DNA from: Escherichia phage vB_EcoP-101101UKE1
Length of the DNA stretch: 44,450 nt
Strand: one strand, 5' to 3'
Sequence record: MZ234012.1
Every line of letters starts with the position of its first letter. Positions within the stretch are counted from its first letter, which is position 1. The position numbers and the translations under genes were made by a program. This document shows, in pieces, positions 4,072 to 44,450 of this stretch. The notes beneath the pieces are model-generated. The model made no database searches. It had not been told where the DNA came from and saw only the letters and a list, made by a program, of their open reading frames with translations.

Positions 4072-6060
4072 ATGGCTATTATTCAGAATGTACCGTGTCC
4101 TGCCTGTCAAAAGAATGGACATGATATTACTGGCAACCATCTTATGATATTTGACGACGGAGCAGGATACTGTAACCGTGGTCACTTCCATGATAACGGT
4201 AAACCTTATTACCACAAGCCAGAGGGTGGCATCGAGATAACCGAATTGCCTATTACTGGCAATATCAAATATACACCTTCTCAATTCAAAGAAATGGAGA
4301 AGGAAGGGAAGATAAGCGACCCTAAGCTACGCGCCATCGCTCTTGGTGGTATGCGTATGAAAGACCGTTGGGAGGTCATGAATGAGCAAGAAAGGGCAGA
4401 CCAAGAAGCAGAGTGGAAACTTGATGTTGAATGGTTCCTCACGCTTAAGCGTAAGAACCTTGTTTCCCGACACATTCGCGGCGACATTTGCGCATTGTAT
4501 GATGTACGTGTTGGGCACGATGAAGAGGGTAGAGTCTCACGGCATTACTATCCGCGCTTCGAAAAAGGTGAGCTAGTAGGCGCTAAATGTCGCACATTAC
4601 CTAAAGATTTTAAGTTTGGTCATTTAGGTAAACTCTTTGGTATGCAAGATCTTTTCGGTATGAATACTTTGTCTCACGTGTTAGACAAGGGAAGACGAAA
4701 GGATTGCTTGCTTATTGTGGGTGGGGAACTGGATGCACTAGCAGCGCAGCAGATGCTCCTTGATTCTGCCAAGGGCACTAAGTGGGAAGGCCAGCCATAC
4801 CATGTATGGTCTGTCAACAAAGGCGAGTCTTGCCTTGAAGAGATAGTGCAGAACCGTGAGCATATCGCCCAATTCAAGAAGATTATATGGGGTTTTGATG
4901 GAGATGAGGTAGGGCAGAAGCAGAATCAGCAAGCGGCTCGCCTGTTTCCTGGCAAATCCTATATCCTTGAATACCCCTCTGGTTGCAAAGATGCTAACAA
5001 GGCATTGATGGCTGGCAAGGCTAAAGAATTTGTAGATGCATGGTTTAATGCCAAGTCATCTGATGAAGTCTTTGGTAGCCAGATTAAATCTATCGCATCT
5101 CAAAGGGATAAGCTCAAGGCTGCACGTCCAGAGCAAGGACTATCATGGCCTTGGCCTAAGCTGAACAAGGTAACGCTAGGTATTCGTAAGAATCAGCTTA
5201 TCATTGTAGGTGCAGGGTCTGGTGTAGGTAAGACTGAGTTCCTTCGTGAAGTAGTTAAGCACCTCATTGAAGAACACGGTGAATCTGTAGGCATCATTTC
5301 TACAGAAGACCCGATGGTCAAGGTGTCCCGTGCTTTTATCGGCAAGTGGATTGATAAGCGTATTGAGTTGCCGCCAACCAACGACCCGAAAGAAGATGGA
5401 TACCGTGAGGTGTTCGACTACACCGAGGAAGAAGCTAACGCCGCCATTGATTATGTAGCTGATACAGGTAAGCTGTTTGTAGCTGACCTAGAGGGTGACT
5501 ATTCGATGGAAAAGGTAGAGCAAACTTGCCTAGAGTTTGAGGCTATGGGTATTTCTAATATCATCATTGATAACTTAACGGGGATTAAATTAGATGAGCG
5601 TGCTTTTGGTGGGAAGGTTGGTGCACTTGATGAATGCGTCAAGCGGATTGGTACTATCAAAGACCGACACCCGGTTACTATATTCCTTGTATCACACCTT
5701 ACACGTCCTCCGGCAAACCGTACCCAACACGAAGAAGGTGGCGAAGTTATCCTTTCTGACTTCCGAGGCTCAGGCGCTATCGGATTCTGGGCATCTTACG
5801 CCTTGGGGATTGAGCGTAATACAAGAGCTGAAACGCTTGACGAAAGGACTACCACGTACATCTCATGTGTCAAAGACCGCGACCAAGGTATCTGGACTGG
5901 AACCAAGGTCATGCTTAAGGGTGACATTCAAACCGGACGTTTAATGGAACCACAAGCCCGTACTAAGTCATTTGACACCGGCGAAGCAAGGCAACAAGAA
6001 GTACCGGATTTACCGGACACTATAGAAGAGACTAACTTCGATGAAGAAAGTGAGTTCTGA
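4072..6060 (+). CDS. DNA primase/helicase (T7 gp4-like), 662 aa
   Basis: N-terminal zinc ribbon CPACQKNGHD...CNRGH, helicase Walker A GAGSGVGKT, and an acidic C-terminal tail ending DEESEF. Confidence 0.92.
   Translation: MAIIQNVPCPACQKNGHDITGNHLMIFDDGAGYCNRGHFHDNGKPYYHKPEGGIEITELPITGNIKYTPSQFKEMEKEGKISDPKLRAIALGGMRMKDRWEVMNEQERADQEAEWKLDVEWFLTLKRKNLVSRHIRGDICALYDVRVGHDEEGRVSRHYYPRFEKGELVGAKCRTLPKDFKFGHLGKLFGMQDLFGMNTLSHVLDKGRRKDCLLIVGGELDALAAQQMLLDSAKGTKWEGQPYHVWSVNKGESCLEEIVQNREHIAQFKKIIWGFDGDEVGQKQNQQAARLFPGKSYILEYPSGCKDANKALMAGKAKEFVDAWFNAKSSDEVFGSQIKSIASQRDKLKAARPEQGLSWPWPKLNKVTLGIRKNQLIIVGAGSGVGKTEFLREVVKHLIEEHGESVGIISTEDPMVKVSRAFIGKWIDKRIELPPTNDPKEDGYREVFDYTEEEANAAIDYVADTGKLFVADLEGDYSMEKVEQTCLEFEAMGISNIIIDNLTGIKLDERAFGGKVGALDECVKRIGTIKDRHPVTIFLVSHLTRPPANRTQHEEGGEVILSDFRGSGAIGFWASYALGIERNTRAETLDERTTTYISCVKDRDQGIWTGTKVMLKGDIQTGRLMEPQARTKSFDTGEARQQEVPDLPDTIEETNFDEESEF
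6008..6030 (+). promoter_or_regulatory. phage RNAP promoter (ATTTACCGGACACTATAGAAGAG)
   Basis: Exact consensus, embedded in the 3' end of the primase/helicase coding sequence. Confidence 0.75.
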
Positions 6061-6081
6061 TTAGTGTACTTATCAGGGCTT

Positions 6082-6097
6082 GTCTCACACGTGAGAC
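6082..6097. promoter_or_regulatory. conserved palindrome GTCTCACACGTGAGAC with extended arms (copy 3 of 6)
   Basis: Lies inside a longer imperfect hairpin gggcttGTCTCACACGTGAGACaggctc followed by ttatt, just after the primase/helicase stop. Confidence 0.6.
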
Positions 6098-6136
6098 AGG
6101 CTCTTATTAAGTACATTAAATAACTGGAGATTGATT

Positions 6137-7049: not shown

Positions 7050-7225
7050 ACATAGTCTTAAAATGTTCGATGGTCATGAAGACCTGCAAGCCAAGATTAC
7101 TAACCAAGCCTTCCTGTTCGCACAGTTAACTATGGCTGAAGCAAAGAAGAATAGCCTGACGCGTGAACAGGTTATCAAGGAAAGTGAAGTGAAACGTAAG
7201 ATTCGCAGTCGATAAGTCAAGGGTT

Positions 7226-7241
7226 GTCTCACACGTGAGAC
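7226..7241. promoter_or_regulatory. conserved palindrome GTCTCACACGTGAGAC with extended arms (copy 4 of 6)
   Basis: aagggttGTCTCACACGTGAGACagccttt forms a roughly 12-bp imperfect stem followed by a T-rich stretch. Confidence 0.6.
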
Positions 7242-7272
7242 AGCCTTTCATCATATTGATTGGAGGTGCATT

Positions 7273-26127: not shown

Positions 26128-29075
26128 TGGCAATTGAGCGACAAGCAGTACAAGGTCTGCCACAAGTGCAGGCCACTTCTCCTAATGTCATGACCTTTGC
26201 ACCTCAACAAGTGGGAGGTGTGGAGGCTGGCGTGGCTTCTACCTCCGGTAGTAGATTTATCGAAGACCTTATTCGTGCAGCCAGCAGCGTGGCTGATGTT
26301 ACCACTGGTATCCTTAATCAGAAGATTGAGGAAGATAAGGTTATTCAAATGGAGCGGGCATATAATGGATTAATGCCTTCTGAGGATGCAACTCGTGGTG
26401 GCGCTCGTGCTAACATGCTTGTCAAAGCTCAACTGCTAGCTAATGATGAAGCAGCACGAATGAAAGACATGGCTACTCGTTTCCAAGGGACGGATGACGA
26501 GTGGACACAACTTATGGTTGACTCTCGTAATGAGATGCAGAATAAGCTGTTCCAGCAATACCCTGAGTTGCAAGGTGACAAAGACACTATGCGTATGGTC
26601 ACTAATGTCTTCCAAGAACAGCAGCCTCAGATTTGGGCTACACGAACCCAGCATAAACTTGACCGTGAACAAGCAGACCGTGAGGATACCTTTGACGGGC
26701 GAGTGGCTTCTACTTGGGATTCTAATATTGACCCTGAAGCCTCTGGCTATGCTTTACAGGAACGAATCCGCGAAGGTCTTACTCAAGGATTACTACCTGA
26801 ACAGATGCACAAGAAGTTAGTCCAGCGAGCAATTTCACTTGCACAAGGCGGTGATGTTAGCATGGCTGAAGCCCTGAAGTATGTGAAGGACGATAAGGGT
26901 GTTTCTGTTTATGCTAAGAACCCACAGCTTATCACAGCCATCACTAGTGGTAATGCAGTTTGGGCTAGGAATAATGTAGCTGATGTAACTCGTATGTCTT
27001 TCGAGGTTAAAGAATCCTACCTTGCAGGTGATTTAACTGATGAAGAATTGTTGGAACGAGCACAGCACATTAATAATCTTACAGGTAACTCTGTCTTCTC
27101 TAATCCAGAACTAGAGGCACTGATGCGCCAACGGGCTAAGCAGAATGCAGAGCTAGGTGCAATGCAGGATATGCGACGTGAGCTTTACTCCGATCGCCTG
27201 ACTGGCTTCCAAGGTAAGACTGATAAAGAGAAGAAGGCTTACATTGATGTTATCAAACAAGATAGCCAACTTTATGCAGACCAGCAAATCAAACAACGTG
27301 GCTTGGACCCTTACAGTCAAGAGGCTGAAGCTATTCGTGGTGCAGTGGAAGTGCAGCGCCTGCAATTCATGAACTCCAAAGGCTTAGTGGATGATACCTT
27401 TGAGTCTCGTATCAAAGCCATGGAATCTATACTATCGCCTGAGCACTTTGCCAAGGGCGAACCACAAGAGTTGATGACTATTCGCCAGTTGTGGGAACAG
27501 TTGCCAGAAGAGAGCCGAGGTGTCTTTGGTGACACGGTGAATGGCTACATGGATAACTACAACACTGCACTACAAATGGGAGAGACACCTTTGCAGGCTG
27601 CAAGGTTTGCGCGTGAAGCACAGCAGAAATTCTCTCGTACTGAGAAGGAAACCAAGAAGTTCAACTCAGCTATTGGAGATGCACTGGATGAGGTATCTGG
27701 TGCTGGCTGGTTCGATGGTAAAACCGAAGTGTCAGACTTAGGTAAAGCTATTGCAGAAGAGGAGTTACGAGCTAAGGCTAATATGCTGTGGTCTAGTGGT
27801 ATGCGTAACATGGATTCCATCAAGAAGGCTTTAATTACTTGGGGCAGTAAACGCTACACTCAATCAGAGGATGCAAAGACTTCCGGTGGCTATTTCATTA
27901 AAGGTGATTACACTTCTGCATCTGATATGCTTATGTCAGTTGGGAAAGGCGTAAACCCTACCGATGTACCTCTGGCGCTTGGTAGGTATGTAGAAACACA
28001 GATGCCAGAATTGAAGAAGGAGCTTCAAGAGTGGGAAACTAAAGATGATATATACATTGATTACAATGAACAGAAAGGAACTTTTGTGATTCGTGCTGGT
28101 GCAGCAGGTCGCCCTCTTTCTGGAGTAATCCCTGTAACCTCTTTAGATACCACTTCACTACTAGATTCTGCCTATCAGAAGAAAGTAGAGGCACGAGATA
28201 AAGGCGAGTATGTTCACCCGTATCGTACAGATATTGGTGCACAAGAGCCTATGCCAGCTAAACCAACTGCCAAAGATATTGGTAAATTTGGACTAGCTAA
28301 CTTCCTCATGTCTTCTGCTTTTGCTTCTGGTGAGAATCTGCCTTCTAACTTCGAGATTAACTATCGAGGTAATATGCAACAATTCTATGACAAGCTAGCT
28401 ATGGATGAGAATAAAGATAAAGTTGGCTTTAATAAGGCAACTGGAACCTTTACTCCATATAAAGACGCTCGCGGTGAGTCTATCGGTTACGGTCATTTCT
28501 TAACGGAAGAAGAGAAGCGAAACGGGTATATTAAGATTGGTGATGAACTAGTTCCCTATCGAGGGTCTATGTCTCAGCTTACAGAGAGCAAGGCTCGCGC
28601 TCTTATGGAGCAAGATGCTAAGAAGCATGTGCCTCCTACTCGTGACTGGAAGATTCCGTTTGACCAGATGCATCCTGCACAGCAACGTGGCTTAATGGAT
28701 TTAACCTACAATTTAGGTAAAGGTGGAATCCAGAACTCACCGCGTGCTCTTGCTGCATTCAAAGCTGGTAGGCTTACGGAAGGCTTTATCGAAATGCTGG
28801 GTACTGCATCAAGTGAAGGTAAGCGTATTCCGGGCCTACTGAAGCGACGCGCTGAGGCATACAATATGGCATCTGCTGGTGGTGTGCCTAAGATTACCGA
28901 AGTGGAGACTCGTGAAGATGGCTCCATGTGGGTTAGGTTTGGTGGACCTATGCCAGCAGGTTCTGTCTCGGCATGGACTCATAAACGTATTGGCGCGGAT
29001 GGTTGGTATCAGGTTTATGAGGCTGCACCTACCAAGTTAGCTAAAGGTTCTAAGGTGGGTAAATTTAAGTTGTAG
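26127..29075 (+). CDS. internal virion (ejection) protein B with C-terminal lysozyme-like domain
   Basis: 982 aa. C-terminal region ...ESIGYGHFLTEEEK...LMDLTYNLGKGG... resembles T4-type lysozyme folds. Confidence 0.7.
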   Translation: MAIERQAVQGLPQVQATSPNVMTFAPQQVGGVEAGVASTSGSRFIEDLIRAASSVADVTTGILNQKIEEDKVIQMERAYNGLMPSEDATRGGARANMLVKAQLLANDEAARMKDMATRFQGTDDEWTQLMVDSRNEMQNKLFQQYPELQGDKDTMRMVTNVFQEQQPQIWATRTQHKLDREQADREDTFDGRVASTWDSNIDPEASGYALQERIREGLTQGLLPEQMHKKLVQRAISLAQGGDVSMAEALKYVKDDKGVSVYAKNPQLITAITSGNAVWARNNVADVTRMSFEVKESYLAGDLTDEELLERAQHINNLTGNSVFSNPELEALMRQRAKQNAELGAMQDMRRELYSDRLTGFQGKTDKEKKAYIDVIKQDSQLYADQQIKQRGLDPYSQEAEAIRGAVEVQRLQFMNSKGLVDDTFESRIKAMESILSPEHFAKGEPQELMTIRQLWEQLPEESRGVFGDTVNGYMDNYNTALQMGETPLQAARFAREAQQKFSRTEKETKKFNSAIGDALDEVSGAGWFDGKTEVSDLGKAIAEEELRAKANMLWSSGMRNMDSIKKALITWGSKRYTQSEDAKTSGGYFIKGDYTSASDMLMSVGKGVNPTDVPLALGRYVETQMPELKKELQEWETKDDIYIDYNEQKGTFVIRAGAAGRPLSGVIPVTSLDTTSLLDSAYQKKVEARDKGEYVHPYRTDIGAQEPMPAKPTAKDIGKFGLANFLMSSAFASGENLPSNFEINYRGNMQQFYDKLAMDENKDKVGFNKATGTFTPYKDARGESIGYGHFLTEEEKRNGYIKIGDELVPYRGSMSQLTESKARALMEQDAKKHVPPTRDWKIPFDQMHPAQQRGLMDLTYNLGKGGIQNSPRALAAFKAGRLTEGFIEMLGTASSEGKRIPGLLKRRAEAYNMASAGGVPKITEVETREDGSMWVRFGGPMPAGSVSAWTHKRIGADGWYQVYEAAPTKLAKGSKVGKFKL

Positions 29076-29092
29076 TATCTAACTCAAGGCTT

Positions 29093-29108
29093 GTCTCACA
29101 TGTGAGAC
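29093..29108. promoter_or_regulatory. conserved palindrome GTCTCACATGTGAGAC with extended arms (copy 6 of 6)
   Basis: aaggcttGTCTCACATGTGAGACaggtcttt, between internal virion protein genes B and C. Confidence 0.6.
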
Positions 29109-29139
29109 AGGTCTTTATGATAGGCACTATGGAGGAATT

Positions 29140-32100: not shown

Positions 32101-32337
32101 GAATTAGTACAATCCCGTTATGAGGCTGGCTTTCAGACTAAGGGTTTGATAGACCAAATACCACTAGTAGGTGTTGGTCAAGATGCATATCGTTTAGCAG
32201 ATTCTATAACTAAATATGCAGAGGGTGATACAGAAGGTGTAGATGTGGCACGTAGGGCTTTACGCTTAGTGCCTCTAACTAATGTAATAGGAATCCAGAA
32301 CGCATTGCGTTATGGCTTAGATGAACTGGAGGATTGA
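29140..32337 (+). CDS. internal virion (core/ejection) protein C
   Basis: 1065 aa, RBS ggagga, in the T7 gp16 position. Confidence 0.7.
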   Translation: MEQDIKTNWAGYVQSTPEPFSIEAAPVSAPTIRQRNELQEQVLEAKADADILGAVGAAFQNEWLAFGGKRWYDRATADFTPQPDFEIQPEQREALRFKYGTDMMQTITEGVRSEDELNFRIQNADEDLERNKRIAQAGWVGSVATIGAAVLDPVGWVASIPTGGAAKVGLVGRAVRGAIAAGVSNAAIESVLVQGDMTRDLDDIMVALGSGMAMGGVIGAVARGRATKLSEQGDDRAASIVRSADAGDRYVRAVADDSIGAMRVKGEEVLTEGAFDISSKGEDLLKTLQREGNSIDMTPRRWAGTMSALGTVVHSSHDASVRGLGARLFESPQGLGMQKASASLMQNTNLNRLKSADMNRFNDGFDLWLKENNINPVAGHTNSHYVQQYNEKVWEAVRIGMDESTPKSIRMAAEGQQAMYREALALRKRSGEAGFENIKADSKYMPDIFDTMKARRQFDRIGKDIDKEDIIELFSRAYQNGARKIPKEVADEIARAQVNRVVDATLTGRMSFEKAMSGQTKAEYEAIMRKAGFSDEEIEKMVEALDNKETRDNISNRAKMSLGLDVTQEYNGIRMRDFMNTNVEELTDNYMKEAAGGAALARQGFSTYQAALNAIDLVERNARNAAKDSKASLALDEEIRQMREGLRLIMGKSIDVDPQALSTKMLRRGRDITGVLRLGQMGFAQLGELANFMGEFGIAATTIALGKQFRFTSKALRSGDGFFRDKNLAEVERMVGYIGEDNWLTTKGARPDEFGDVTTVKGMMAHFDQSMNSIRRAQTNLSLFRMAQGSLERMTNRQIALSFIDHLEGKKIIPQKKLEELGLTQEFMTNLQKHYDANSKGSGLLGFDTMPYAMGETLANAIRRKSGLIIQRNFIGDEGIWMNKALGKTFAQLKSFSLVSGEKQFGRGIRHDKIGLAKKTAYGFALGSIVYAAKAYVNSIGREDQDEYLEEKLSPKGLAFGAMGMMSTTAVFSLGGDFLGGLGVLPSELVQSRYEAGFQTKGLIDQIPLVGVGQDAYRLADSITKYAEGDTEGVDVARRALRLVPLTNVIGIQNALRYGLDELED

Positions 32338-33299
32338 TGAGTTATACTTTCACAGAACATATAGCCAACGGTACGCAAGTAACCTATCCCTTTAGATTTG
32401 CTGGCAGGGATAAAGGCTATCTTCGTGCCTCAGATGTGATAGTGGAATCTCTTCAAGGTAACACTTGGATTGAAGTTACATCTGGCTGGCAACTAACTGG
32501 CACGCACCAGATTACTTTTGATGTAGCACCAGTTGCAGGTTTGAAGTTCCGTATTCGAAGGGAAGTACAAAAGGAGTATCCATACGCTGAGTTTGACCGT
32601 GGTGTTACCTTGGATATGAAGTCTTTAAATGGTTCTTTCATTCATATACTGGAGATTACACAGGAGTTACTTGACGGGTTTTATCCAGAAGGATACTTCA
32701 TTAAACAGAATGTAAGCTGGGGCGGCAATAAGATTACTGATTTGGCTGATGGCACAAATCCTGGAGATGCAGTAAATAAAGGGCAGCTTGATGCCATCGA
32801 CAAGAAGCATACAGATTGGAACGCCAAACAGGACATTGAGATTGCTGGCCTTAAGGCTGGTATGACTTCTGGTATTGCGCACAGAACTGTTCCTTGGTAC
32901 ACGATAGCCAAAGGTGGTGAGATTTCCGTAAAACCACCTTATGAGTTTCAAGATGCACTAGTTTTCCTTAATGGGGTGTTGCAGCACCAAATTGTAGGCG
33001 CATACTCTATAAGCAACAACACTATCACTTTCGCAGAGCCGCTTGTGGCGGGTACAGAGGTGTATGTGCTGATTGGTAGTCGTGTGGCTACATCTGAACC
33101 TAATATTCAGTTAGAGTTGAACTTTGACTTAATAGAAGGCCAACAAGTAGTACAGATTGGCTCTGCATTTAAGTACATTGAGGTCTACCTTGATGGATTA
33201 TTACAACCTAAACTTGCTTACCAGGTAGACGGTGACATTGTTACTTTCTCAGAAAGAGTACCAGAATGCCGGATGACTGCTAAGATTATCACAGCATAA
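32337..33299 (+). CDS. tail fiber-like adaptor protein (T7 gp17 N-terminal-domain-like)
   Basis: ~320 aa, in the gene 17 position before the holin. Too short to be a full fiber, and distal tailspikes are encoded separately at the right end. Confidence 0.6.
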   Translation: MSYTFTEHIANGTQVTYPFRFAGRDKGYLRASDVIVESLQGNTWIEVTSGWQLTGTHQITFDVAPVAGLKFRIRREVQKEYPYAEFDRGVTLDMKSLNGSFIHILEITQELLDGFYPEGYFIKQNVSWGGNKITDLADGTNPGDAVNKGQLDAIDKKHTDWNAKQDIEIAGLKAGMTSGIAHRTVPWYTIAKGGEISVKPPYEFQDALVFLNGVLQHQIVGAYSISNNTITFAEPLVAGTEVYVLIGSRVATSEPNIQLELNFDLIEGQQVVQIGSAFKYIEVYLDGLLQPKLAYQVDGDIVTFSERVPECRMTAKIITA

Positions 33300-33503: not shown

Positions 33504-33786
33504 ACATGCAGCTACAGAGGATGAGGTTGGCATTCTGCATGGTGCTATTACCAAAATCTTCAATAAGAAAGCACAGGCAATACTGGACACTATAGAAGAA
33601 GACCCTGATGCAGCATTACATTTAGTGTCTGGTAAGGATATTGGTGCGATGTGTAAGTGGGTTCTTGATAACGGCATTACCGCCACACCTGCTGCACAGC
33701 AGGAAGAGTCCAAGTTATCTAAGCGCCTCAAGGCTATCCGAGAGGCATCCAGTGGCAAGATTATTCAGTTTACAAAAGAGGAGTGA
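33487..33786 (+). CDS. putative terminase small subunit (assigned by position)
   Basis: GTG start after RBS ggaggg, located between the holin and the HNH/large terminase genes as for T7 gene 18. No motif recognised. Confidence 0.4.
   Translation: MSVHNKHAATEDEVGILHGAITKIFNKKAQAILDTIEEDPDAALHLVSGKDIGAMCKWVLDNGITATPAAQQEESKLSKRLKAIREASSGKIIQFTKEE
33579..33600 (+). promoter_or_regulatory. phage RNAP promoter variant (AATACTGGACACTATAGAAGAA)
   Basis: Core ACTGGACACTATAGAAG is perfect. It lies inside the putative small terminase gene, upstream of the HNH and large terminase genes. Confidence 0.55.
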
Positions 33787-33787
33787 T

Positions 33788-34231
33788 ATGCATAGATGGT
33801 GTGAATCTCAAGGTTATACCATCTTACCTTCTGGTGTCATCCTTTCAAAGGGTGGCACCCCTCTCAAACCATTCAAGGCGGGTAGGGGTTATTTAGCAGT
33901 TAAAATTAAAAATAAAGAAGGTAGATGGCGTAATGTCTATGTTCATCAATTAGTGGCTTATAAGTATTTACCTAAAACTAATAATGAAGTAAACCACAAA
34001 GACGGCGATAAGCACAACAATGATGTTAGCAACTTGGAGTGGGTAACAAGAAGCGAGAATAACTATTTAAAATGCAATGGAAATGATAGGAGTACCTTAA
34101 ATAGCTATTTAGCAAGATTAAAAGATTGCTTCTTGCAAGGTAAGGGTGTAGCAGAAACCGCTAGACTTACTGGTAAAAGTGAACCAAGAGTTTCTTCTCT
34201 CTTTAAGGAGTGGCGAAATGGCAAAGGCTAG
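33788..34231 (+). CDS. HNH homing endonuclease
   Basis: HNH motif VNHKDGDKHNNDVSNLEWVTRSEN. AT-rich compared with its neighbours. Start ATG 33788 with RBS aagaggag; the track ORF opens at 33641. Confidence 0.8.
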   Translation: MHRWCESQGYTILPSGVILSKGGTPLKPFKAGRGYLAVKIKNKEGRWRNVYVHQLVAYKYLPKTNNEVNHKDGDKHNNDVSNLEWVTRSENNYLKCNGNDRSTLNSYLARLKDCFLQGKGVAETARLTGKSEPRVSSLFKEWRNGKG

Positions 34232-36116
34232 AGAATCACAGGCAGAGGCATTAAAGCGGTGGGAAAACCTTAAAGAACTACAAGACACTTTTAAATATAC
34301 AGCGGAAGGTTTGCTTCTCTTTGCAGATACAGTTATTCATAACTTAATTGCAGGCAACCCTCATCTGATTCGTATGCAGGCTGATATCTTGAAGTTCCTA
34401 TTTTACGGACACAAGTACCGCCTCATCGAAGCGCCTCGTGGTATCGCTAAGACAACACTATCAGCAATCTATACGGTATTCCGTATTATTCATGAACCGC
34501 ATAAGCGTATCATGGTTGTGTCCCAAAACGCCAAGCGAGCAGAGGAAATCGCAGGTTGGGTAGTTAAAATCTTCCGTGGCTTAGACTTTCTTGAGTTTAT
34601 GCTGCCGGATATCTACGCTGGGGACCGTGCATCCGTTAAGGCGTTTGAGATTCATTACACCCTACGTGGTAGTGATAAGTCTCCTTCTGTATCCTGTTAC
34701 TCAATCGAAGCAGGTATGCAGGGTGCTCGTGCTGATATTATTCTAGCGGATGACGTAGAGTCGATGCAGAATGCTCGTACGGCAGCGGGCCGTGCCTTGC
34801 TTGAGGAACTGACTAAGGAGTTTGAATCTATCAACCAGTTTGGGGATATCATTTACCTTGGTACACCTCAGAACGTAAACTCTATCTACAACAACCTACC
34901 TGCTCGTGGTTACTCTGTTCGTATCTGGACTGCGCGTTACCCTTCAGTAGAGCAAGAGCAATGTTATGGCGACTTCCTTGCACCTATGATTGTTCAAGAT
35001 ATGAAGGACAACCCAGCACTTCGCTCAGGGTACGGGTTGGATGGTAATAGTGGTGCACCTTGTGCCCCTGAAATGTATGATGATGAAGTCCTGATTGAGA
35101 AGGAAATCTCTCAGGGTGCTGCTAAGTTCCAGCTTCAGTTCATGCTTAACACTCGCATGATGGATGCTGACAGATACCCATTACGCCTGAACAATCTAAT
35201 CTTCACCTCGTTTGGTACAGAGGAAGTCCCTGTGATGCCTACGTGGAGTAATGATTCCATAAACATCATTGGTGATGCACCTAAGTATGGTAACAAGCCT
35301 ACGGATTTCATGTACAGACCTGTAGCTCGCCCATATGAATGGGGCGCTGTCTCCCGCAAGATTATGTATATTGACCCTGCGGGTGGTGGTAAGAACGGAG
35401 ATGAGACGGGTGTAGCCATCGTATTCCTGCACGGCACATTCATTTATGTGTATCAGTGCTTTGGTGTACCTGGCGGATACCGAGAGTCGTCCCTGAATCG
35501 CATTGTGCAAGCCGCAAAGCAGGCGGGTGTTAAAGAGGTATTCATTGAGAAGAACTTTGGTCATGGCGCGTTTGAGGCGGTAATTAAGCCGTACTTTGAA
35601 CGAGAGTGGCCTGTAACTCTGGAAGAGGATTACGCCACCGGACAGAAAGAGTTGCGTATCATTGAGACGCTGGAGCCGCTCATGGCAGCACATAGGCTTA
35701 TCTTCAATGCAGAGATGGTGAAGTCAGACTTTGAGTCGGTACAGCACTATCCGCTTGAACTACGCATGTCCTACAGTCTTTTCAATCAAATGTCGAACAT
35801 AACGATTGAGAAGAACAGCCTCCGGCACGATGACCGCCTAGACGCCCTGTATGGCGCTATACGGCAATTAACTTCTCAGATAGACTATGACGAGGTTACA
35901 CGGATTAATCGCCTCAGAGCGCAGGAGATGCGCGATTACATCCATGCTATGAATACACCTCATTTACGCAGGGCAATGCTATATGGAGATTACGGTACTG
36001 AGCGAAGAGTGACCAACACTTCCGTAGCGATGCAGCAGCGAGTTTACGGGCAGAACTACCGAAATAAATCGGCAAGCAGAAATACACTTTCTGCAAGGAT
36101 TTCAAGGACTTATTAA
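34218..36116 (+). CDS. terminase large subunit (T7 gp19-like)
   Basis: Walker A-like PRGIAKTT and Walker B-like ILADDVE. Probable start ATG 34218 (RBS aaggag); the track ORF opens at 34179. Confidence 0.9.
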   Translation: MAKARESQAEALKRWENLKELQDTFKYTAEGLLLFADTVIHNLIAGNPHLIRMQADILKFLFYGHKYRLIEAPRGIAKTTLSAIYTVFRIIHEPHKRIMVVSQNAKRAEEIAGWVVKIFRGLDFLEFMLPDIYAGDRASVKAFEIHYTLRGSDKSPSVSCYSIEAGMQGARADIILADDVESMQNARTAAGRALLEELTKEFESINQFGDIIYLGTPQNVNSIYNNLPARGYSVRIWTARYPSVEQEQCYGDFLAPMIVQDMKDNPALRSGYGLDGNSGAPCAPEMYDDEVLIEKEISQGAAKFQLQFMLNTRMMDADRYPLRLNNLIFTSFGTEEVPVMPTWSNDSINIIGDAPKYGNKPTDFMYRPVARPYEWGAVSRKIMYIDPAGGGKNGDETGVAIVFLHGTFIYVYQCFGVPGGYRESSLNRIVQAAKQAGVKEVFIEKNFGHGAFEAVIKPYFEREWPVTLEEDYATGQKELRIIETLEPLMAAHRLIFNAEMVKSDFESVQHYPLELRMSYSLFNQMSNITIEKNSLRHDDRLDALYGAIRQLTSQIDYDEVTRINRLRAQEMRDYIHAMNTPHLRRAMLYGDYGTERRVTNTSVAMQQRVYGQNYRNKSASRNTLSARISRTY

Positions 36117-37781: not shown

Positions 37782-37805
37782 ATTTACTGGACACTATAGA
37801 AGAGG
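37782..37805 (+). promoter_or_regulatory. phage RNAP promoter upstream of the tailspike genes (ATTTACTGGACACTATAGAAGAGG)
   Basis: Exact consensus. Confidence 0.8.
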
Positions 37806-37883
37806 TAAGATAGCGCCGTTCTTTTGAGCGGCCTATTACTAGCCAATCTTCATAGGGAGGGTTGGAAAGTAATAGGAGATAGC

Positions 37884-39782
37884 ATGGCTAAATTAACCAA
37901 ACCTAATACTGAAGGAATCTTGCATAAAGGACAATCTTTGTATGAGTACCTTGATGCGAGAGTTTTAACATCAAAGCCGTTTGGTGCTGTAGGTGACGCC
38001 GCTACTGATGATACGGAGGTTATAGCTGCTTCATTAAACTCTCAGAAAGCTGTCACAATCTCAGACGGTGTATTCTCTAGCTCTGGTATTAATAGTAATT
38101 ACTGTAACTTAGACGGTAGAGGTAGTGGGGTGCTAAGTCACCGTTCCAGTACAGGTAACTACTTAGTATTTAACAATCCACGTACAGGTCGCTTAAGTAA
38201 TATTACGGTAGAAAGTAATAAGGAGACTGATACAACTCAGGGACAGCAGGTATCTCTTGCGGGTGGAAGTGATGTTACTGTAAGTGACGTTAACTTCTCA
38301 AACGTTAAAGGTACTGGTTTCAGTTTAATCGCATACCCTAATGATGCGCCACCTGATGGACTTATGATTAAAGGCATTCGAGGTAGCTATTCCGGCTATG
38401 CTACTAATAAGGCAGCCGGATGCGTACTTGCTGACTCATCAGTTAACTCCCTCATAGATAACGTCATTGCTAAGAACTACCCTCAGTTCGGAGCAGTAGA
38501 GTTGAAAGGTACAGCCAGTTACAACATAGTCAGTAATGTTATAGGGACAGATTGCCAGCATGTAACTTACAACGGCACTGAAGGGCCAATAGCTCCTTCT
38601 AATAACCTTATCAAGGGGGTGATGGCTAATAACCCTAAGTATGCAGCGGTTGTTGCAGGCAAAGGAAGTACGAACTTGATCTCAGACGTGCTCGTAGGTT
38701 ACTCAACTTCTGATGCTAGGCAGGTTCATGGTGTTACCGTAGAAGGATCTGATAACGTCATAAATAATGTGCTTATGTCAGGATGTGATGGTACTAACTC
38801 TTTAGGACAAAGGCAGACTGCTACAATTGCACGCTTTATAGGTACAGCTAATAACAACTATGCGTCTGTATTTCCTAGCTACAGTGCTACAGGTGTTATT
38901 ACTTTCGAATCCGGCTCTACCCGTAACTTCGTAGAGGTAAAGCACCCTGGCAGGAGAAACGACCTTCTCAGTTCTGCTAGTACTATTGACGGTGCAGCTA
39001 CTATTGACGGCACTAATAATAGTAACGTAGTGCACGCACCTGCCTTAGGGCAGTACATAGGTAGTATGTCAGGTAGGTTCGAATGGCGGATTAAGTCCAT
39101 GTCACTCCCTTCAGGCGTTCTTACTTCTGCTGATAAGTACAGAATGCTTGGGGATGGTGCTGTATCATTAGCTTTAGGTGGGGGTACTTCTTCTCAAGTT
39201 CGCCTATTTACTTCTGATGGTACTTCTCGGACAGTGTCCCTCACCAACGGTAACGTGCGTCTTTCTACCAGTAGCACAGGCTATTTGCAGTTAGGTACTG
39301 ATGCAATGACCCCAGATAGTACTGGTACATACGCATTAGGTTCCGCCAGTCGAGCATGGTCTGGCGGTTTTACTCAAGCAGCATTCACTGTTACATCAGA
39401 TGCTCGGTGTAAAACAGAACCTCTTACTATCTCAGATGCCTTACTGGATGCTTGGTCTGAAGTTGACTTTGTGCAGTTTCAGTATTTGGATCGTGTTGAG
39501 GAGAAGGGTGCAGACTCAGCTAGATGGCACTTCGGTATCATCGCTCAGCGAGCTAAGGAGTCTTTCGAACGTCACGGTATAGATGCACATCGCTATGGCT
39601 TCTTGTGCTTCGACAGTTGGGATGATGTATACGAGGAAGATGCCAATGGCTCTCGTAAACTGATTACACCAGCAGGTTCCCGCTACGGTATTCGTTACGA
39701 GGAAGTGCTGATATTAGAGGCTGCGTTGATGCGGCGGACTATTAAGCGTATGCAGGAAGCACTAGCTTCCCTGCCTAAGTAA
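37884..39782 (+). CDS. tailspike 1: beta-helix depolymerase with C-terminal intramolecular chaperone (peptidase S74) domain
   Basis: N-terminal FGAVGDAATDDTEVIAA is pectate-lyase-like. C-terminal SDARCKTEP...WHFGIIAQRAKESFERHGIDAHRYGFLCFDSWDD matches the auto-cleaving chaperone domain of endosialidases, K5 lyase and the T5 L-shaped fiber. Start ATG 37884. Confidence 0.85.
   Translation: MAKLTKPNTEGILHKGQSLYEYLDARVLTSKPFGAVGDAATDDTEVIAASLNSQKAVTISDGVFSSSGINSNYCNLDGRGSGVLSHRSSTGNYLVFNNPRTGRLSNITVESNKETDTTQGQQVSLAGGSDVTVSDVNFSNVKGTGFSLIAYPNDAPPDGLMIKGIRGSYSGYATNKAAGCVLADSSVNSLIDNVIAKNYPQFGAVELKGTASYNIVSNVIGTDCQHVTYNGTEGPIAPSNNLIKGVMANNPKYAAVVAGKGSTNLISDVLVGYSTSDARQVHGVTVEGSDNVINNVLMSGCDGTNSLGQRQTATIARFIGTANNNYASVFPSYSATGVITFESGSTRNFVEVKHPGRRNDLLSSASTIDGAATIDGTNNSNVVHAPALGQYIGSMSGRFEWRIKSMSLPSGVLTSADKYRMLGDGAVSLALGGGTSSQVRLFTSDGTSRTVSLTNGNVRLSTSSTGYLQLGTDAMTPDSTGTYALGSASRAWSGGFTQAAFTVTSDARCKTEPLTISDALLDAWSEVDFVQFQYLDRVEEKGADSARWHFGIIAQRAKESFERHGIDAHRYGFLCFDSWDDVYEEDANGSRKLITPAGSRYGIRYEEVLILEAALMRRTIKRMQEALASLPK
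39406..39779 (+). other. intramolecular chaperone / peptidase S74 auto-processing domain within tailspike 1
   Basis: Begins at the conserved Ser of the SDARxK motif. Predicted self-cleavage immediately before this Ser. Confidence 0.7.
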
Positions 39783-39788
39783 GCAACA

Positions 39789-39812
39789 GGCAGTGCGTAA
39801 GCACTGCTTTTC
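39789..39812 (+). terminator. rho-independent terminator-like hairpin between the two tailspike genes
   Basis: gcagtgc-GTAA-gcactgc (7-bp perfect stem) followed by ttttc. Confidence 0.55.
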
Positions 39813-39867
39813 ACGCAACTTTTCTTAAAGGTTATCATGGTGGTAGCCTTTCAGAAAAGGAGGTTAC

Positions 39868-41580
39868 ATGCTTCAAAGATTAAGTGCTTACTTGGTGAAG
39901 TACAAGAGTAAACTAACAGGTACTATTGAGCGCCTGCTATCTGATAAACTATCGGATACTATAGATGTTGCGGATTTTGGAGTTAATCCCTCTTCTAATG
40001 ACAACAGGCAAGCCCTTCAAGCTGCATTTAATGCGGTCAGATTGCTAGGCGGTGGTACTGTATCAGTCACTAAGGCTGGCGAATATAAACTAAGTGGTAC
40101 TGTTGAGATATTTGCTAATACACACTTCAAGGTTGCTAAAGGTGTAACATTTGTACGTGACTACGAAACAGGAGATACGCTATTCAGATTATCACAAGGG
40201 CAAGCTAGTAATGTAACAGTCAGTGGAGGTGTCTATGAAGGCAATGGTCACACTAAAGGAGATACACCTTTTGTAGTATTTGCATCTACTAGTAATAATG
40301 ATTTGAAGTTTGAAGGCATAATAGTTAACAATGTAGTGGACTACCACGCCATAGATTTAGCAGATTGGAACAACGTAGTTATTCGTGATTGTAAATTCCT
40401 AGGGTTTAAGAATACAGGCAGTCGTAACTTCTCAGAGGCTATACAGTTAGACCCAGGACTTATTACAGTAGGTCGCTATGTGCAGTCTAGTGGTTTACTG
40501 GTAGAGAATTGCTATGCTGGCCCAAACCTTGATTCTGGATTTGGCGGGTATGGTGCTCTAGTAGGAAATCATGCATCAGCTTATGGTGTTCAAGATAACA
40601 ACATTAGAATCCTAAATTGCACTACAGATGGTGCGCTCTTTGCAGGTGTACGTGTATTTAACTGGAAAAACTGGATAGTACGTGGTTGCACATTTAGAAA
40701 TTCTAATGCAAGAGGTGTTCATGTTACACCTGTCTCCTCTCAAACTAAACCGCAAGGAACTCGACAAGGTAGTGTTGTAGATTGTACTTTTGATGGCGTA
40801 AGAACACCAGTGCTAATTGCTGCACCATCTTGGCCTTTTACCGATATTAGTGACATTTGGCATGACCATATTGAAATTTCTAATAATACTATGATCCTCA
40901 CAGAGGATGTATCCTATGGTGTAGATGCAAGGTGGTGTAAGAATTTAATTGTAAAGGGTAATACAGGCTCTGGTGGCTTAGGGTTAATCGGTTTACGCTT
41001 TGGGACAAAATACCACATAGAAGGTAATACTTGGGAAAACGGAAGAGGTAGTGGGATTTGGTTAGGTGAGTCTGATGCTACTACATTCATTGGTACTGGA
41101 TTATCGGGCGAAGGTATACTTAGTCGTAATATCCTCTCTAAATTAGGGCAATATGGTATTCATGTAAACTGCAAGGTTGGCGGTCTAGTGATTAAGGCTA
41201 ATAATATGAAGGAAGTATCTACAGCTGAAGCAGGTAGGCACTTCATTAGCATAGACACAGGAGCTAACAACATCCTAGTAGAAGGTAATATTGGAGTAGA
41301 TGGAGAAAGCCCTAACAAGCCAAGCCTTGGTATTCGTGTTACTTCTTCTTGTTCCAATATTAAACTCATTGGCAATGATTGCTATGGTACACAGGCGCCT
41401 CAGAATAACCAAGGAGTCGGTTCTAGTACGGTGATTGTTTATGGACTAAATGGCGATCCTACAACTTTAGGCGTAGGTGCACCTGTAGGCTCTTTAGCAA
41501 CTGATATCAATGGGTCTGGTGGTAGTACATTGTACGTTAAAGAATCTGGTACATCTGCTCAAGGTTGGGTTGCAAAGTAG
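39868..41580 (+). CDS. tailspike 2: pectate-lyase-like right-handed beta-helix protein
   Basis: RBS aaaggagg. DVADFGVNPSSNDNRQALQAAFNA is typical of pectate-lyase-superfamily tailspikes, and Gly/Asn/Val-rich repeats follow. Confidence 0.75.
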   Translation: MLQRLSAYLVKYKSKLTGTIERLLSDKLSDTIDVADFGVNPSSNDNRQALQAAFNAVRLLGGGTVSVTKAGEYKLSGTVEIFANTHFKVAKGVTFVRDYETGDTLFRLSQGQASNVTVSGGVYEGNGHTKGDTPFVVFASTSNNDLKFEGIIVNNVVDYHAIDLADWNNVVIRDCKFLGFKNTGSRNFSEAIQLDPGLITVGRYVQSSGLLVENCYAGPNLDSGFGGYGALVGNHASAYGVQDNNIRILNCTTDGALFAGVRVFNWKNWIVRGCTFRNSNARGVHVTPVSSQTKPQGTRQGSVVDCTFDGVRTPVLIAAPSWPFTDISDIWHDHIEISNNTMILTEDVSYGVDARWCKNLIVKGNTGSGGLGLIGLRFGTKYHIEGNTWENGRGSGIWLGESDATTFIGTGLSGEGILSRNILSKLGQYGIHVNCKVGGLVIKANNMKEVSTAEAGRHFISIDTGANNILVEGNIGVDGESPNKPSLGIRVTSSCSNIKLIGNDCYGTQAPQNNQGVGSSTVIVYGLNGDPTTLGVGAPVGSLATDINGSGGSTLYVKESGTSAQGWVAK

Positions 41581-41589
41581 TAGGATTGC

Positions 41590-41739
41590 ATGCCAATAAT
41601 CAAATCAGTTAAGCAAAGTGCTGTACGCCAGAACACAGAAGAGCTTATTCAATCAGGCCGTGACCCTAAGCAAGCTTATGCCATTGCCAAGGATGTACAA
41701 CGTCGTGCCTTGAAGAAACCTTCTGCATCTTCTGCGTAA
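41590..41739 (+). CDS. small basic protein (49 aa)
   Basis: ORF directly after tailspike 2 with a weak RBS. Confidence 0.3.
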   Translation: MPIIKSVKQSAVRQNTEELIQSGRDPKQAYAIAKDVQRRALKKPSASSA

Positions 41740-42045: not shown

Positions 42046-42066
42046 CCCCCCCCCCCCCCCCCCCCC
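42046..42066. repeat. 21-nt poly(C) homopolymer
   Basis: Uninterrupted run of 21 C, preceded by (CGCCCT)x3 and followed by TATAGGG. Confidence 0.9.
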
Positions 42067-42326
42067 TATAGGGTGGCCTGAGGGAATCCGTCTTCGACGG
42101 GCAGGGCTGATGTACTCCTTGGATAGTACAAGGGAGGCGGAGGGAACGCCTAGGACGGCCTAGGGAATGGCTTAGTGGTGGACAAGGTGATTACCTTAGT
42201 GAAGCCTCTTAGTGCATTCCTGAGGCCATTCAGGGCGTTTATGAGGGATTGACAGGGTGAATGGGTGTGGGCTATCTGTTCGTTTCGTTCACTCCGCTTG
42301 CGCTCCGTTCACTCGCTCACGTGTAC

Positions 42327-42453
42327 CTTAGGTTATTACTTGATGGATAGCTTAGGTTAACCTTAGTGGAATGCCTTAGTTAAAGACTTAGTGCTTATCT
42401 TAGTAACAGCTTAGTAGTGTACCTTAGTTGGTCTTAGTGAATAGCCTTAGTGA
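42327..42453. repeat. array of about 10 CTTAGT short repeats with 10-13-bp spacing
   Basis: CTTAG occurs at 42327, 42351, 42362, 42375, 42387, 42399, 42410, 42423, 42433 and 42446. Further copies at 42171, 42196, 42208 and between 42590 and 42775. Confidence 0.85.
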
Positions 42454-42648
42454 TTGCACATGCAAGAATGTAAGATGCCAATAGGTCGCGGTCGGTAGAC
42501 CGCTAAAGAGAGAGAATAGTAATAAGATGCAGTAGGAGGAACACCAGAAACCTAGCCAACCTAGCCTATCCTAGCTCTGTATCTATTGCTTTTCCTTAGT
42601 CTAACATGTGAGACAACCTAGATTTATCTTAGTGATGATATCTTAGTG

Positions 42649-42677
42649 TTGACAAGGCCATCTCAATATAATACTAT
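42649..42677 (+). promoter_or_regulatory. candidate sigma70 early promoter (TTGACA-17-TACTAT)
   Basis: Perfect -35 hexamer, 17-bp spacer and a good -10, upstream of the first early gene. Confidence 0.55.
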
Positions 42678-42820
42678 TCATCACGTAGGCAGCACTGAGG
42701 TGCTTAGTAGCCAGCTAGTAAGGCATACGAAGAGACTAGCGCTTACATTGCTCTTTAACAATTTGCTTAGTGTAACCTATGTATGCCGTGGTCAATTACT
42801 TATTGAATGAGGAATTAACT

Positions 42821-43000
42821 ATGACATTAAACAACCGTGAACTGTCCGTTCTCTTCACTCTGTTGTGCTACATGATTCGTAACAACGAATTACTTACAGA
42901 CGATGAGTTAGCCTTGTATCACCGCTTTCTTAACGAAGGTTGGACCGATACAGTTAATCAATACCGTAACATGATAGATGAGTTGAGGGAGGGTAAATAA
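42821..43000 (+). CDS. early hypothetical protein (59 aa)
   Basis: RBS gagga 8 nt before ATG 42821; the track ORF opens at 42779. Confidence 0.4.
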   Translation: MTLNNRELSVLFTLLCYMIRNNELLTDDELALYHRFLNEGWTDTVNQYRNMIDELREGK

Positions 43001-43224
43001 TGTATCAGCATGAGGTTTTCTTTGAGTCAGCTAGTGAAGCTATCCGCTTCCTTGAAGATATGCTACAAGCTGGCGTAGGTGTTGATGTACATCACTTCCT
43101 ACTAGATTACGACACTGAATATCACCGAGTTACCTTAGTATCTGAGTATGACAACCAAGTCATTACTGAGTACCTAGGCAGTGAAGATTACGATTACGAT
43201 GAAGTAATCACGACAAATCTCTAA
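43000..43224 (+). CDS. early acidic protein (74 aa, Asp/Glu/Tyr-rich)
   Basis: TAATG-coupled to the preceding gene, RBS gagggagg. Strong net negative charge. Confidence 0.4.
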   Translation: MYQHEVFFESASEAIRFLEDMLQAGVGVDVHHFLLDYDTEYHRVTLVSEYDNQVITEYLGSEDYDYDEVITTNL

Positions 43225-43232
43225 ATTAACTG

Positions 43233-43261
43233 TTGACAGCCACGGCATACAAGGTTACATT
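43233..43261 (+). promoter_or_regulatory. candidate sigma70 early promoter (TTGACA-17-TACATT)
   Basis: Perfect -35 hexamer with a 17-bp spacer. Confidence 0.45.
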
Positions 43262-43353
43262 AAGCATCAAGACGGCGACGTCTTTAAACATCCCGCTCTT
43301 TAACAATACGGTTTGTGTCTTGATAGGCTAACTAACTAACTAAGGTAATTATC

Positions 43354-43464
43354 ATGAAAGGTTTAATTTGTGTAGAACGTATGGTCAATGGTAAACTTGA
43401 AATATTACCACTGGAAAACCAATCTAGCTTCAAAGAGTGGTATGGCTGTTTCTCACTGATTTAA
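43354..43464 (+). CDS. early small protein (36 aa)
   Basis: ORF after the TAACTAACTAA stop cluster with a weak RBS. Confidence 0.3.
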   Translation: MKGLICVERMVNGKLEILPLENQSSFKEWYGCFSLI

Positions 43465-43614
43465 GGTAGAGGCTGGCACTAGTCAGCCTATCAAGGCGCA
43501 AACCAAGCTCTTTAACAATTTGGATAAAGCTTCTTAGTCTGGATAGGTTAAACCTAGGAGATTCTCTTGAGTCTCCTATAATGTAACCTAACTAACTAAA
43601 TGAGGATTAATAAC

Positions 43615-43968
43615 ATGGCTATGTCTAATATGACTTACTCTCAGGTTTACAACACCGCTCATGCTGCATTAGTTGAACGTATCTGGAATGATGATATTGA
43701 TTGTATCGATAACGCACATGATGCAATCCATGATGCGGCGGATAGCGCTGTACCAATCTATTATGCTGACATCTTCTCCGTGATGGCGAGTGAAGGTATT
43801 GATCACTTCTTCGAAGACTCCGGCCTGATGCCAGATACTAAGGATGTAACGGTCGTACTACAAGCCCGTATTTATGAACAACTCACCATTGATTTATGGG
43901 AACGTGTTCAAGATATGATTGTTGAGTACACCACTTACGCTGAGTATTCAGAAGAAGAGGAAGAATAA
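43615..43968 (+). CDS. ocr: Ocr-like DNA-mimic anti-restriction protein (T7 gene 0.3 homolog)
   Basis: MAMSNMTY..., [43 protein letters not shown] and [15 protein letters not shown] closely match my recollection of T7 Ocr. 117 aa with an acidic C-terminus. RBS gagga 7 nt before ATG 43615. Confidence 0.8.
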
Positions 43969-43969
43969 G

Positions 43970-44083
43970 ATGGAAAAGCTATACAACTTCATCTTTTCAG
44001 ACGGTGTAACCCTGAAGTGTTCCCTACGATTCGCACAAATTCGTGAGGAAGTACTAGGCACTACATACAAACTATTTAGCTGA
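43970..44083 (+). CDS. early small protein (37 aa)
   Basis: Begins 2 nt after the ocr stop, in the slot of T7 gene 0.4. No sequence similarity recognised. Confidence 0.3.
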   Translation: MEKLYNFIFSDGVTLKCSLRFAQIREEVLGTTYKLFS

Positions 44084-44098
44084 CACTATAAGAGAAGG
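44074..44098 (+). promoter_or_regulatory. degenerate phage-promoter-like element (ATTTAGCTGACACTATAAGAGAAGG)
   Basis: Strong resemblance to the consensus but with TATAAGAG in place of TATAGAAG. Confidence 0.3.
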
Positions 44099-44159
44099 CT
44101 TAACAAGGCGTTGCTACGGTAGCGCCTGATTAAACTTTCACTTACTAGGAGTTAAGACT

Positions 44160-44387
44160 ATGGATTTAGATAGCATCATTATGGCATTTGCTCTTATTGG
44201 CTTAAGCTGGTGCTCCTATCACCTTTACCGTGAGTTCTTATTTGATAAAGCTAAACGCAAACTAAGAAAGGAAGGCGGCAATTACCTTTGTGTAAGAGGT
44301 GGGCTTGTAGAATACATTGCACCTAACGGCACGGAATGCGCCATTAGCAAAGATGCATTTATAGAAACGTGGCATTACATCAAGTAA
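44160..44387 (+). CDS. early membrane protein (75 aa)
   Basis: RBS aggag. N-terminal TM helix IIMAFALIGLSWCSY. Confidence 0.4.
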   Translation: MDLDSIIMAFALIGLSWCSYHLYREFLFDKAKRKLRKEGGNYLCVRGGLVEYIAPNGTECAISKDAFIETWHYIK

Positions 44388-44421
44388 CTAGCCTATAGTC
44401 TACCTGAGTGGGCTATGTGAT

Positions 44422-44446
44422 ATTTACTTACACTATATAAGGTGAC
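44422..44446 (+). promoter_or_regulatory. degenerate phage-promoter-like element (ATTTACTTACACTATATAAGGTGAC)
   Basis: Partial match to the consensus, immediately upstream (across the circular junction) of the ORF at 1. Confidence 0.25.
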
Positions 44447-44450
44447 TATT

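Follow-up and report, generated by a model that had tools for sequence, protein, structure and literature searches.

Escherichia phage vB_EcoP-101101UKE1 carries two adjacent genes for different tailspikes, separated by 85 nucleotides, which raises the question of what each spike recognises, how both are held on one virion and what the short spacer between their genes does. The locus was analysed in the 44,450-nucleotide sequence record MZ234012.1, the whole of which is called the window here. The window is a Vectrevirus genome of the K1-5/SP6-like type, and the locus is a known, otherwise textbook, K1-5-type two-tailspike host-recognition module. The explanation that accounts best for the locus as a whole, and that we regard as quite likely, is that an adaptor of the gp37 type carries a K5 lyase and a probable K2 spike, and that the spacer between the two spike genes is a structured RNA. 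The arrangement itself is not new, the pairing of the K5 lyase with the second spike having been in print earlier for the phages LL11 (PMC6687929) and vKMB47 (PMC11162368). The additions made here are the E. coli K2 capsule as a candidate receptor for the second spike and the structured spacer RNA. Established below are the identities between sequences, the folds, the degree of conservation and covariation, and the limits of the cassette.

Two tailspikes and their adaptor

Tailspike 1 (37884..39782, + strand; 632 amino acids) is identical to K1-5 gp46, the K5 lyase, at 618 of 632 residues (98%), and it matches phrog_14895 over its full length. Its residues 1-505 match the crystal structure of the K5 lyase, 2x3h, with few substitutions (1066 bits, E = 0). 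Spike 1 is thus KflA, the K5 lyase, and from this identity it would cut the heparosan of the K5 capsule. The protein consists of an anchor of about residues 1-30, a lyase beta-helix with a stalk reaching to S505 (codon 39396..39398) and an S74 chaperone domain of residues 506-632. The Pfam family Peptidase_S74 (PF13884) is found at residues 505-565 with 52.3 bits, compared with a gathering cut-off of 22. The C-terminal 127 residues match endosialidase K1F (3gw6), phi29 gp12 (3gud) and the T5 L-shaped fibre (4uw8) with E values of 1e-9 to 3e-22, and the alignment to 3gud, the chaperone domain released from phi29 gp12, begins at residue 505. The sequence SDARCK starts at this residue, and S505-D-A-R-C-K510 fits the S-x4-K motif, in which a Ser nucleophile is followed five residues on by a Lys, reportedly Ser911 and Lys916 in endosialidase K1F. 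As in K1F, phi29 gp12 and the T5 fibre, the domain begins at the Ser of this motif, but in spike 1 it is attached to a lyase beta-helix and not to a sialidase or a fibre. The S74 domain would fold the spike 1 trimer and then cut itself off after Ser505, between S505 and D506. The chain of 2x3h lacks the chaperone domain 506-632 and ends at residue 505, which indirectly supports this predicted autoproteolytic release. The preliminary description of the locus, made from the sequence alone, had placed an intramolecular chaperone domain at SDARCK; it read the structure of spike 1 correctly but missed that the protein is the K5 lyase itself.

Tailspike 2 (39868..41580, + strand; 570 amino acids) consists of an anchor of residues 1-29, a beta-helix from residue 30 to about residue 510 and a small C-terminal domain modelled with low confidence. 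It passes the Pfam family Beta_helix, matches a PHROG tail-spike family and has no S74 domain. Structure prediction, which had been proposed beforehand as a check, was run on spike 2 with AlphaFold and 14 homologues, and gave a continuous right-handed parallel beta-helix after the disordered residues 1-29 (predicted local distance difference test score, pLDDT, 84.3). The protein is therefore a distinct pectate-lyase-like beta-helix, as had been suggested. At 95% identity or more, spike 2 is present in 21 phage records, all of them Vectrevirus. Homologues at 45-51% identity come from enterobacterial phages, prophages and metagenomic contigs and bear different modules at the N-terminus, among them the head-binding domain of P22 and the N-terminus of TSP1/gp66, which is the usual pattern of exchangeable receptor-binding domains. 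H160, D163, E190, Q193, D195 and H235 are nearly or fully invariant among the homologues, and none of them could be placed on a characterised active site. The one match returned by a sequence search of the PDB is PfbA of Streptococcus pneumoniae (3zpp, 4mr0). PfbA, SPO1 gp18.3 and phi29 gp12 are distant from spike 2 and have no N-terminal or C-terminal modules in common with it. PfbA is an adhesin, and no function is transferable to spike 2 from it or from the Gram-positive phage spikes.

The tailspike adaptor (32337..33299, + strand; 320 amino acids; phrog_2710) is of the K1-5 gp37 type. It is 98.8% identical to the product of K1-5 gene 37, contains Pfam Phage_T7_tail at residues 3-153 and matches the PDB entry 7y22_e, 'tail adaptor protein', over residues 1-317 (E 1.8e-81). 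The adaptor thus corresponds to a T7 gp17-like N-terminal domain without the fibre shaft. In K1-5 and K1E, both spikes reportedly attach to an adaptor of the gp37 type, as Leiman and colleagues are said to have found in 2007, and by analogy we infer that both spikes are borne on the adaptor in the virion of 101101UKE1. The N-terminal domain of the adaptor would dock on the tail and the remainder would carry the spikes, so that one adaptor would bear two different trimeric spikes, each via an N-terminal anchor of about 30 residues. Homology of spike 1 to 9vvr, a solved 843-residue spike whose long N-terminus is of the T7 type, starts only at residue 31, which sets the length of the spike 1 anchor at about 30 residues. 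The first 45 or so residues of spike 2 align with the N-terminus of K1-5 gp47, the endosialidase. Both the very short anchors of the spikes and the gp17-like adaptor of the SP6/K1-5 type had been recognised in the preliminary description.

Exchange and candidate receptor of the second spike

K1-5 (AY370674; Scholl 2001, Leiman 2007) has the same gene order as the window and also has the promoter and the 85-nucleotide spacer in common with it, together with the K5 lyase (98% identical) and the adaptor (98.8%). The difference lies in slot 2. K1-5 gp47 has the same N-terminal anchor as spike 2 and the same gp48 flank, but it is an 811-residue K1 endosialidase, whereas the slot is occupied here by a 570-residue beta-helix without the S74 domain. 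The second host type is K1 for K1-5 and is predicted to be K2 here. Nucleotide homology to K1-5 breaks off after 39921 (codon 18 of spike 2) and returns at 41587, immediately ahead of a gp48-like open reading frame (ORF). This break delimits an exchangeable cassette (39922..41586, + strand) from codon 19 of spike 2 to 6 nucleotides past its stop codon, and the cassette would have been swapped into the slot held by the K1 endosialidase body in K1-5. The G+C content of spike 2 is 40.8%, compared with 45.1% for the genome, which is consistent with a recent acquisition of the cassette; spike 1, with 45.0%, does not depart from the genome average. On its right, the cassette is bordered by the conserved gp48-like ORF itself (41590..41739, + strand; 49 amino acids), a homologue of K1-5 gene 48 with a match to phrog_2423 (E 7e-22).

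Other phages combine the two slots differently. The same spike 2 is encoded in T147_P1 and T147_P9 behind a different slot-1 beta-helix with the N-terminus MARLTRP, and phage K5 has a third kind of slot-2 protein with the anchor alone in common. T147_P7 and T147_P10 are further carriers of spike 2. Together with the homology breaks relative to K1-5, these pairings indicate that the slots assort independently of each other and that the breakpoints fall at the spacer and the anchors. The pair of K5 lyase and spike 2 found in the window is present at 96-99.8% nucleotide identity in LL11 (MH729818), vKMB47 (OR424385), EC120, LI10_P3-P6 and Sem1-4. The papers on LL11 and vKMB47 assigned no receptor to spike 2, and the spacer was not analysed there. 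In the deposited vKMB47 record, a 55-base-pair (bp) tandem duplication at the equivalent of window position 39970 frameshifts spike 2 and splits its annotation into two coding sequences; otherwise the gene has 3 substitutions relative to that of the window. The duplication could have arisen in the assembly or could be a true mutation that inactivates the gene. The slot-1 spike of T147_P9 (OZ035774, stretch 1051-3003) is a beta-helix of about 630 amino acids with a weak Beta_helix match that replaces the K5 lyase. Given that this phage lyses K5 strains, its slot-1 spike may be a second, unrelated K5-directed spike.

Spike 2 is probably the spike for the E. coli K2 capsule and a candidate depolymerase. 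It would recognise and degrade this capsule, giving a host range of K5 plus K2. LI10_P3-P6, which carry the K5 lyase and spike 2, were isolated on LI10, a strain typed O25:H4, sequence type 131 (ST131) and K2. Another host, CFT073, is of serotype O6:K2. vKMB47, with the K5 lyase and spike 2, was propagated on CFT073, and vKMB14, with the K5 lyase and another spike, does not infect this strain (PMC11162368). Further support comes from the host-range data of Gaborieau et al. (preprint 10.1101/2023.11.22.567924, Supplementary Tables 1 and 3), from which sampled rows and the first 49 phage columns were used; all counts from this source refer to that part of the tables. Ten strains there are typed K2. 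The spike 2 carriers T147_P9 and T147_P10 are positive on 9 of the 10, and these positives span O1, O4, O6, O25, O75 and O107 as well as O-negative strains, that is, at least six O types. Vectreviruses that have the K5 lyase without spike 2 (PDP21_P3, PDP21_P6, T205_P4 and T205_P5) are positive on none of the 10. About 20 rows of K1, K7, uncapsulated and Klebsiella-capsule strains in the same tables are negative.

Several observations weigh against the assignment to K2. Most K2 scores of T147_P9 and T147_P10 in the sampled rows are only 1. The same two phages lyse K5 strains too, presumably through the slot-1 spike because the T147 isolation host is K5, and they also lyse two O25:H4 strains with capsule type '5' and O6:H1 strains of sequence type 73 (ST73) that lack a capsule call and so are not typed as K2. 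SHAK7163, a K1E-like phage without spike 2, is reported to infect CFT073 (bioRxiv 10.1101/2024.01.12.575291), which weakens CFT073 as evidence for K2. Moreover, spike 2 is frameshifted in the vKMB47 record by the 55-bp duplication, and Klebsiella aerogenes was the isolation host of Sem4, a phage with the same pair of genes.

A less probable explanation is that spike 2 is directed not at K2 but at some other surface glycan, for instance an O antigen, a further capsular type or a polysaccharide of the Klebsiella type, or that it binds its receptor without enzymatic activity. The lysis of non-K2 strains by spike 2 carriers, the growth of Sem4 on K. aerogenes and the infection of CFT073 by SHAK7163 without spike 2 all agree with this explanation, as do a 50%-identical homologue of spike 2 in a Klebsiella K44 phage (PMC13005862) and the fact that PfbA, the closest solved relative, is an adhesin. 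However, isolation on the K2 hosts LI10 and CFT073 is not explicable by the K5 lyase, and the sampled K5-lyase phages without spike 2 are positive on 0 of the 10 K2 strains. E. coli LM07, which bears a Klebsiella-type K2 capsule, is negative in the sampled rows, and a single O antigen as the receptor is excluded by the spread of the K2 positives over O1, O4, O6, O25, O75 and O107. The halos of vKMB47 plaques also count against this explanation (PMC11162368). The K2 capsule thus remains the better supported receptor, and the earlier proposal that two surface polysaccharides are recognised has indirect support, the two being K5 and probably K2.

No phage depolymerase for the E. coli K2 capsule was found in the literature searched, reviews included. 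A K2 paper by McGarry (2025) was considered as a source of information on spike 2 and set aside, other phages having been studied there. The E. coli K2 capsule is a galactosyl-glycerol-phosphate polymer and resembles a teichoic acid. Beyond the homologues at 45-51% identity, the nearest relatives of spike 2 are Gram-positive phage spikes and PfbA, which suggests a possible recruitment from teichoic-acid-directed spikes. The joint proposal that spike 2 is the first E. coli K2 depolymerase, recruited from such spikes, that it cleaves a phosphodiester-linked polymer by a chemistry new to coliphage spikes and that its expression depends on RNase III processing of a conserved leader masking its ribosome-binding site is unlikely when all its parts are taken together. 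Many uropathogenic and ST131 strains of E. coli bear a K2 capsule (reference strain, CFT073), and a defined K2 spike, if confirmed, would be useful for capsule typing, as an anti-virulence enzyme and in host-range engineering.

Structure and possible function of the intergenic spacer

The conserved intergenic element (39783..39867, + strand; 85 nucleotides) contains two hairpins followed by the Shine-Dalgarno sequence of spike 2. Hairpin 1 (39790..39807, extendable to 39788..39809) has a GC-rich stem of 7-9 bp and a GTAA loop, and is followed by TTTT at 39808..39811. Hairpin 2 (39819..39859) is bipartite, with 7 and 11 bp separated by a 1x1 internal loop, and the Shine-Dalgarno sequence AAGGAGG (39857..39863) overlaps its 3' arm. 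The spacer folds with -35.3 kcal/mol (z = -6.7). It is conserved within the Molineuxvirinae and kept in 131 phage records over several genera, among which are SP6 (Zindervirus), Proteus Acadevirus, Lelliottia Tuodvirus, Pectobacterium POP72, a Klebsiella phage and the myovirus alia. This diversity was taken from GenBank phages; a scan of IMG/VR with a 19-mer next to the Shine-Dalgarno sequence gave 6 loci, and a search of Rfam with the spacer gave no family matches. When 14 distinct versions of the spacer are aligned, 93.8% of the pair cells are standard pairs; sliding the partners lowers this share to 36-57%. Double-sided changes occur at seven pairs, and not one of the observed measures was reached in 500 shuffles of this 14-sequence alignment. 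In hairpin 1, for example, 8 sequences have GC at one pair where 5 have CG, and a second pair is UA in 5, GC in 5 and CG in 3. In the alifold consensus, the base of hairpin 2 extends into the GGAGG of the spike 2 ribosome-binding site.

The 5' leader of spike 1 (37799..37883, + strand) has the same layout, with a hairpin at 37815..37832, a bipartite hairpin at 37833..37875 and then a Shine-Dalgarno sequence. Its minimum free energy is -34 kcal/mol (z = -5.4), and it is the second-best + strand match in the window to the covariance model built from the spacer (R1), with 22.4 bits.

The spike operon has an SP6-type phage RNA polymerase promoter (37782..37804, + strand), which is an exact copy of the 23-nucleotide consensus ATTTACTGGACACTATAGAAGAG. 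The window contains 8 copies of this consensus compared with 0 expected, and the scan found none within the spacer. A sigma-70 promoter in the spacer was considered and rejected, the single weak match (9/12) being within chance expectation. Both spike genes would be transcribed from the phage promoter at 37782, and spike 2 depends on read-through because the spacer has no phage promoter. A role of the spacer in RNA processing, stability and translation is favoured. The base of hairpin 2 would occlude the ribosome-binding site of spike 2, hairpin 1 would act as a 3' stabiliser or a weak attenuator, and the spacer would also serve as a homologous joint for recombination of the spike cassette. 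Weak attenuation, a recombination joint at the DNA level and the RNA role do not exclude one another.

As for processing, hairpin 2 might be a T7-type RNase III site, a suggestion that we put forward tentatively and by analogy. It is bipartite, intercistronic and located just 5' of the Shine-Dalgarno sequence, which is the layout of T7 RNase III sites (about 18-20 bp with an internal loop). In an alignment its flanks, CT(C/T)AA(A)GG ... GCCTT(T), recur in T7 R1.1 and R1.3, taken at the positions reported for these sites, and in three other hairpins of the window. Like R1.1 and R1.3, hairpin 2 is placed between an upstream gene or promoter and the Shine-Dalgarno sequence that follows, but one mismatch makes up its internal loop and its stem has another sequence. 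The literature consulted reports no RNase III cleavage in an SP6-like phage. What tells against the suggestion is that the likeness is to T7 sites, R1.1 and R1.3, that are not annotated in the T7 record used. The three other hairpins of the window (6061-6120, 7206-7265 and 29071-29133) are also bipartite, intercistronic and just upstream of a Shine-Dalgarno sequence. They have a common core, AAGGnTTGTCTCAC..GTGAGACAGnCTT, and flanks (CTCAAGG ... CTTTATGAT) nearly identical to those of T7 R1.1, which by analogy makes them probable RNase III sites.

The preliminary description had proposed that a terminator-like hairpin between the genes could set their relative expression, that is, that hairpin 1 is a terminator or attenuator for phage or host RNA polymerase and fixes the ratio of the spikes. 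We regard this as doubtful. The GC-rich stem of 7-9 bp with a GTAA loop and T's behind it has the appearance of a terminator and is annotated as 'terminator' in LL11 and KAW1A4500 (an annotation of the TransTermHP type); the stem is maintained by compensatory changes, and hairpin 1 also follows the sole spike gene of 101118B1 and RoP3a. However, the U-run is 4 nucleotides long here and 2-4 in 13 related phages, compared with about 6-8 expected of a U-tract, and the + strand site does not reach the 5 T in 8 bases that the scan demands, both of which make a strong terminator unlikely. There is also no downstream promoter to compensate. The two spikes are said to occur in equal copy number in K1-5-type virions, again from the 2007 work, and strong termination would be counter-productive given this ratio. 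Selection on a genuine hairpin is thus supported, but termination as a control of the spike ratio is not the best-supported mechanism, because the U-run is short, hairpin 1 is one half of a two-hairpin element and hairpin 2 resembles T7 RNase III sites and pairs with the Shine-Dalgarno sequence of spike 2.

Conservation of the spacer as DNA only, as a homology patch for cassette recombination with no RNA function, would fit the homology breakpoints between phages at the spacer edges, the independent assortment of the two slots and the presence of the same element next to a spike gene of alia, an unrelated myovirus, but it is improbable, because the stems are preserved by double-sided substitutions in more divergent genera and the other sequences that F4M1D and RoP3a have in place of hairpin 2 still form hairpins, both of which indicate selection on structure. 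The role in RNA processing, stability and translation therefore remains the favoured one, and the analysis of the spacer provides a concrete, testable picture of how the second spike is expressed and exchanged in SP6-like phages.

Two variants of the element were observed at other loci. In 101118B1 (MZ234020) and RoP3a (PQ197423), stretch 401-520, a single spike gene is present and hairpin 1 is retained after it; past hairpin 1 there is a different, perfect hairpin (TTCCCTTGAAG...CTTCAAGGGAA), followed by the gp48-like ORF. The phi92-like myovirus alia (MN850632, stretch 6001-6077) has an SP6-type two-hairpin spacer at 87% identity. It is located directly after the 574-residue pectate-lyase-like spike alia_23 and before a 49-residue ORF annotated as Salmonella podophage tail protein-like, and the locus looks like the remnant of a podovirus spike cassette that moved into a myovirus.

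Genome context

GenBank matches to the spike region comprise 103 phage records, nearly all of them Vectrevirus (Autographiviridae, Molineuxvirinae). The whole 3.9-kb spike stretch is present in 17 GenBank records at 96-99.8% identity, with vKMB47 as the best match, and vB_EcoP-101101UKE1 and vKMB47 were described as nearly identical by Markuskova et al. (PMC11162368). The host strain of 101101UKE1, DSM101101, is O25b-positive. The gene order at the spike locus is the same as in K1-5 and LL11, with two adjacent spike genes after the lysis genes. The right genome end of K1-5 maps to window position 42274, and the record is circularly permuted relative to K1-5, so that the spikes, although followed by a further 2.2 kb in the window, were correctly said to lie at the right end in the canonical orientation. 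This remaining part (42275-44450) contains small early-type ORFs, and a C-rich tract with a palindrome at 42061-42076 is found close to the 42274 junction. The ORF 33641-34231 reads, from its translation only, like an HNH homing endonuclease (HKDGDKHNNDVSNLEWVT); it is situated directly upstream of a 645-residue ORF (34179..36116) and overlaps its start.

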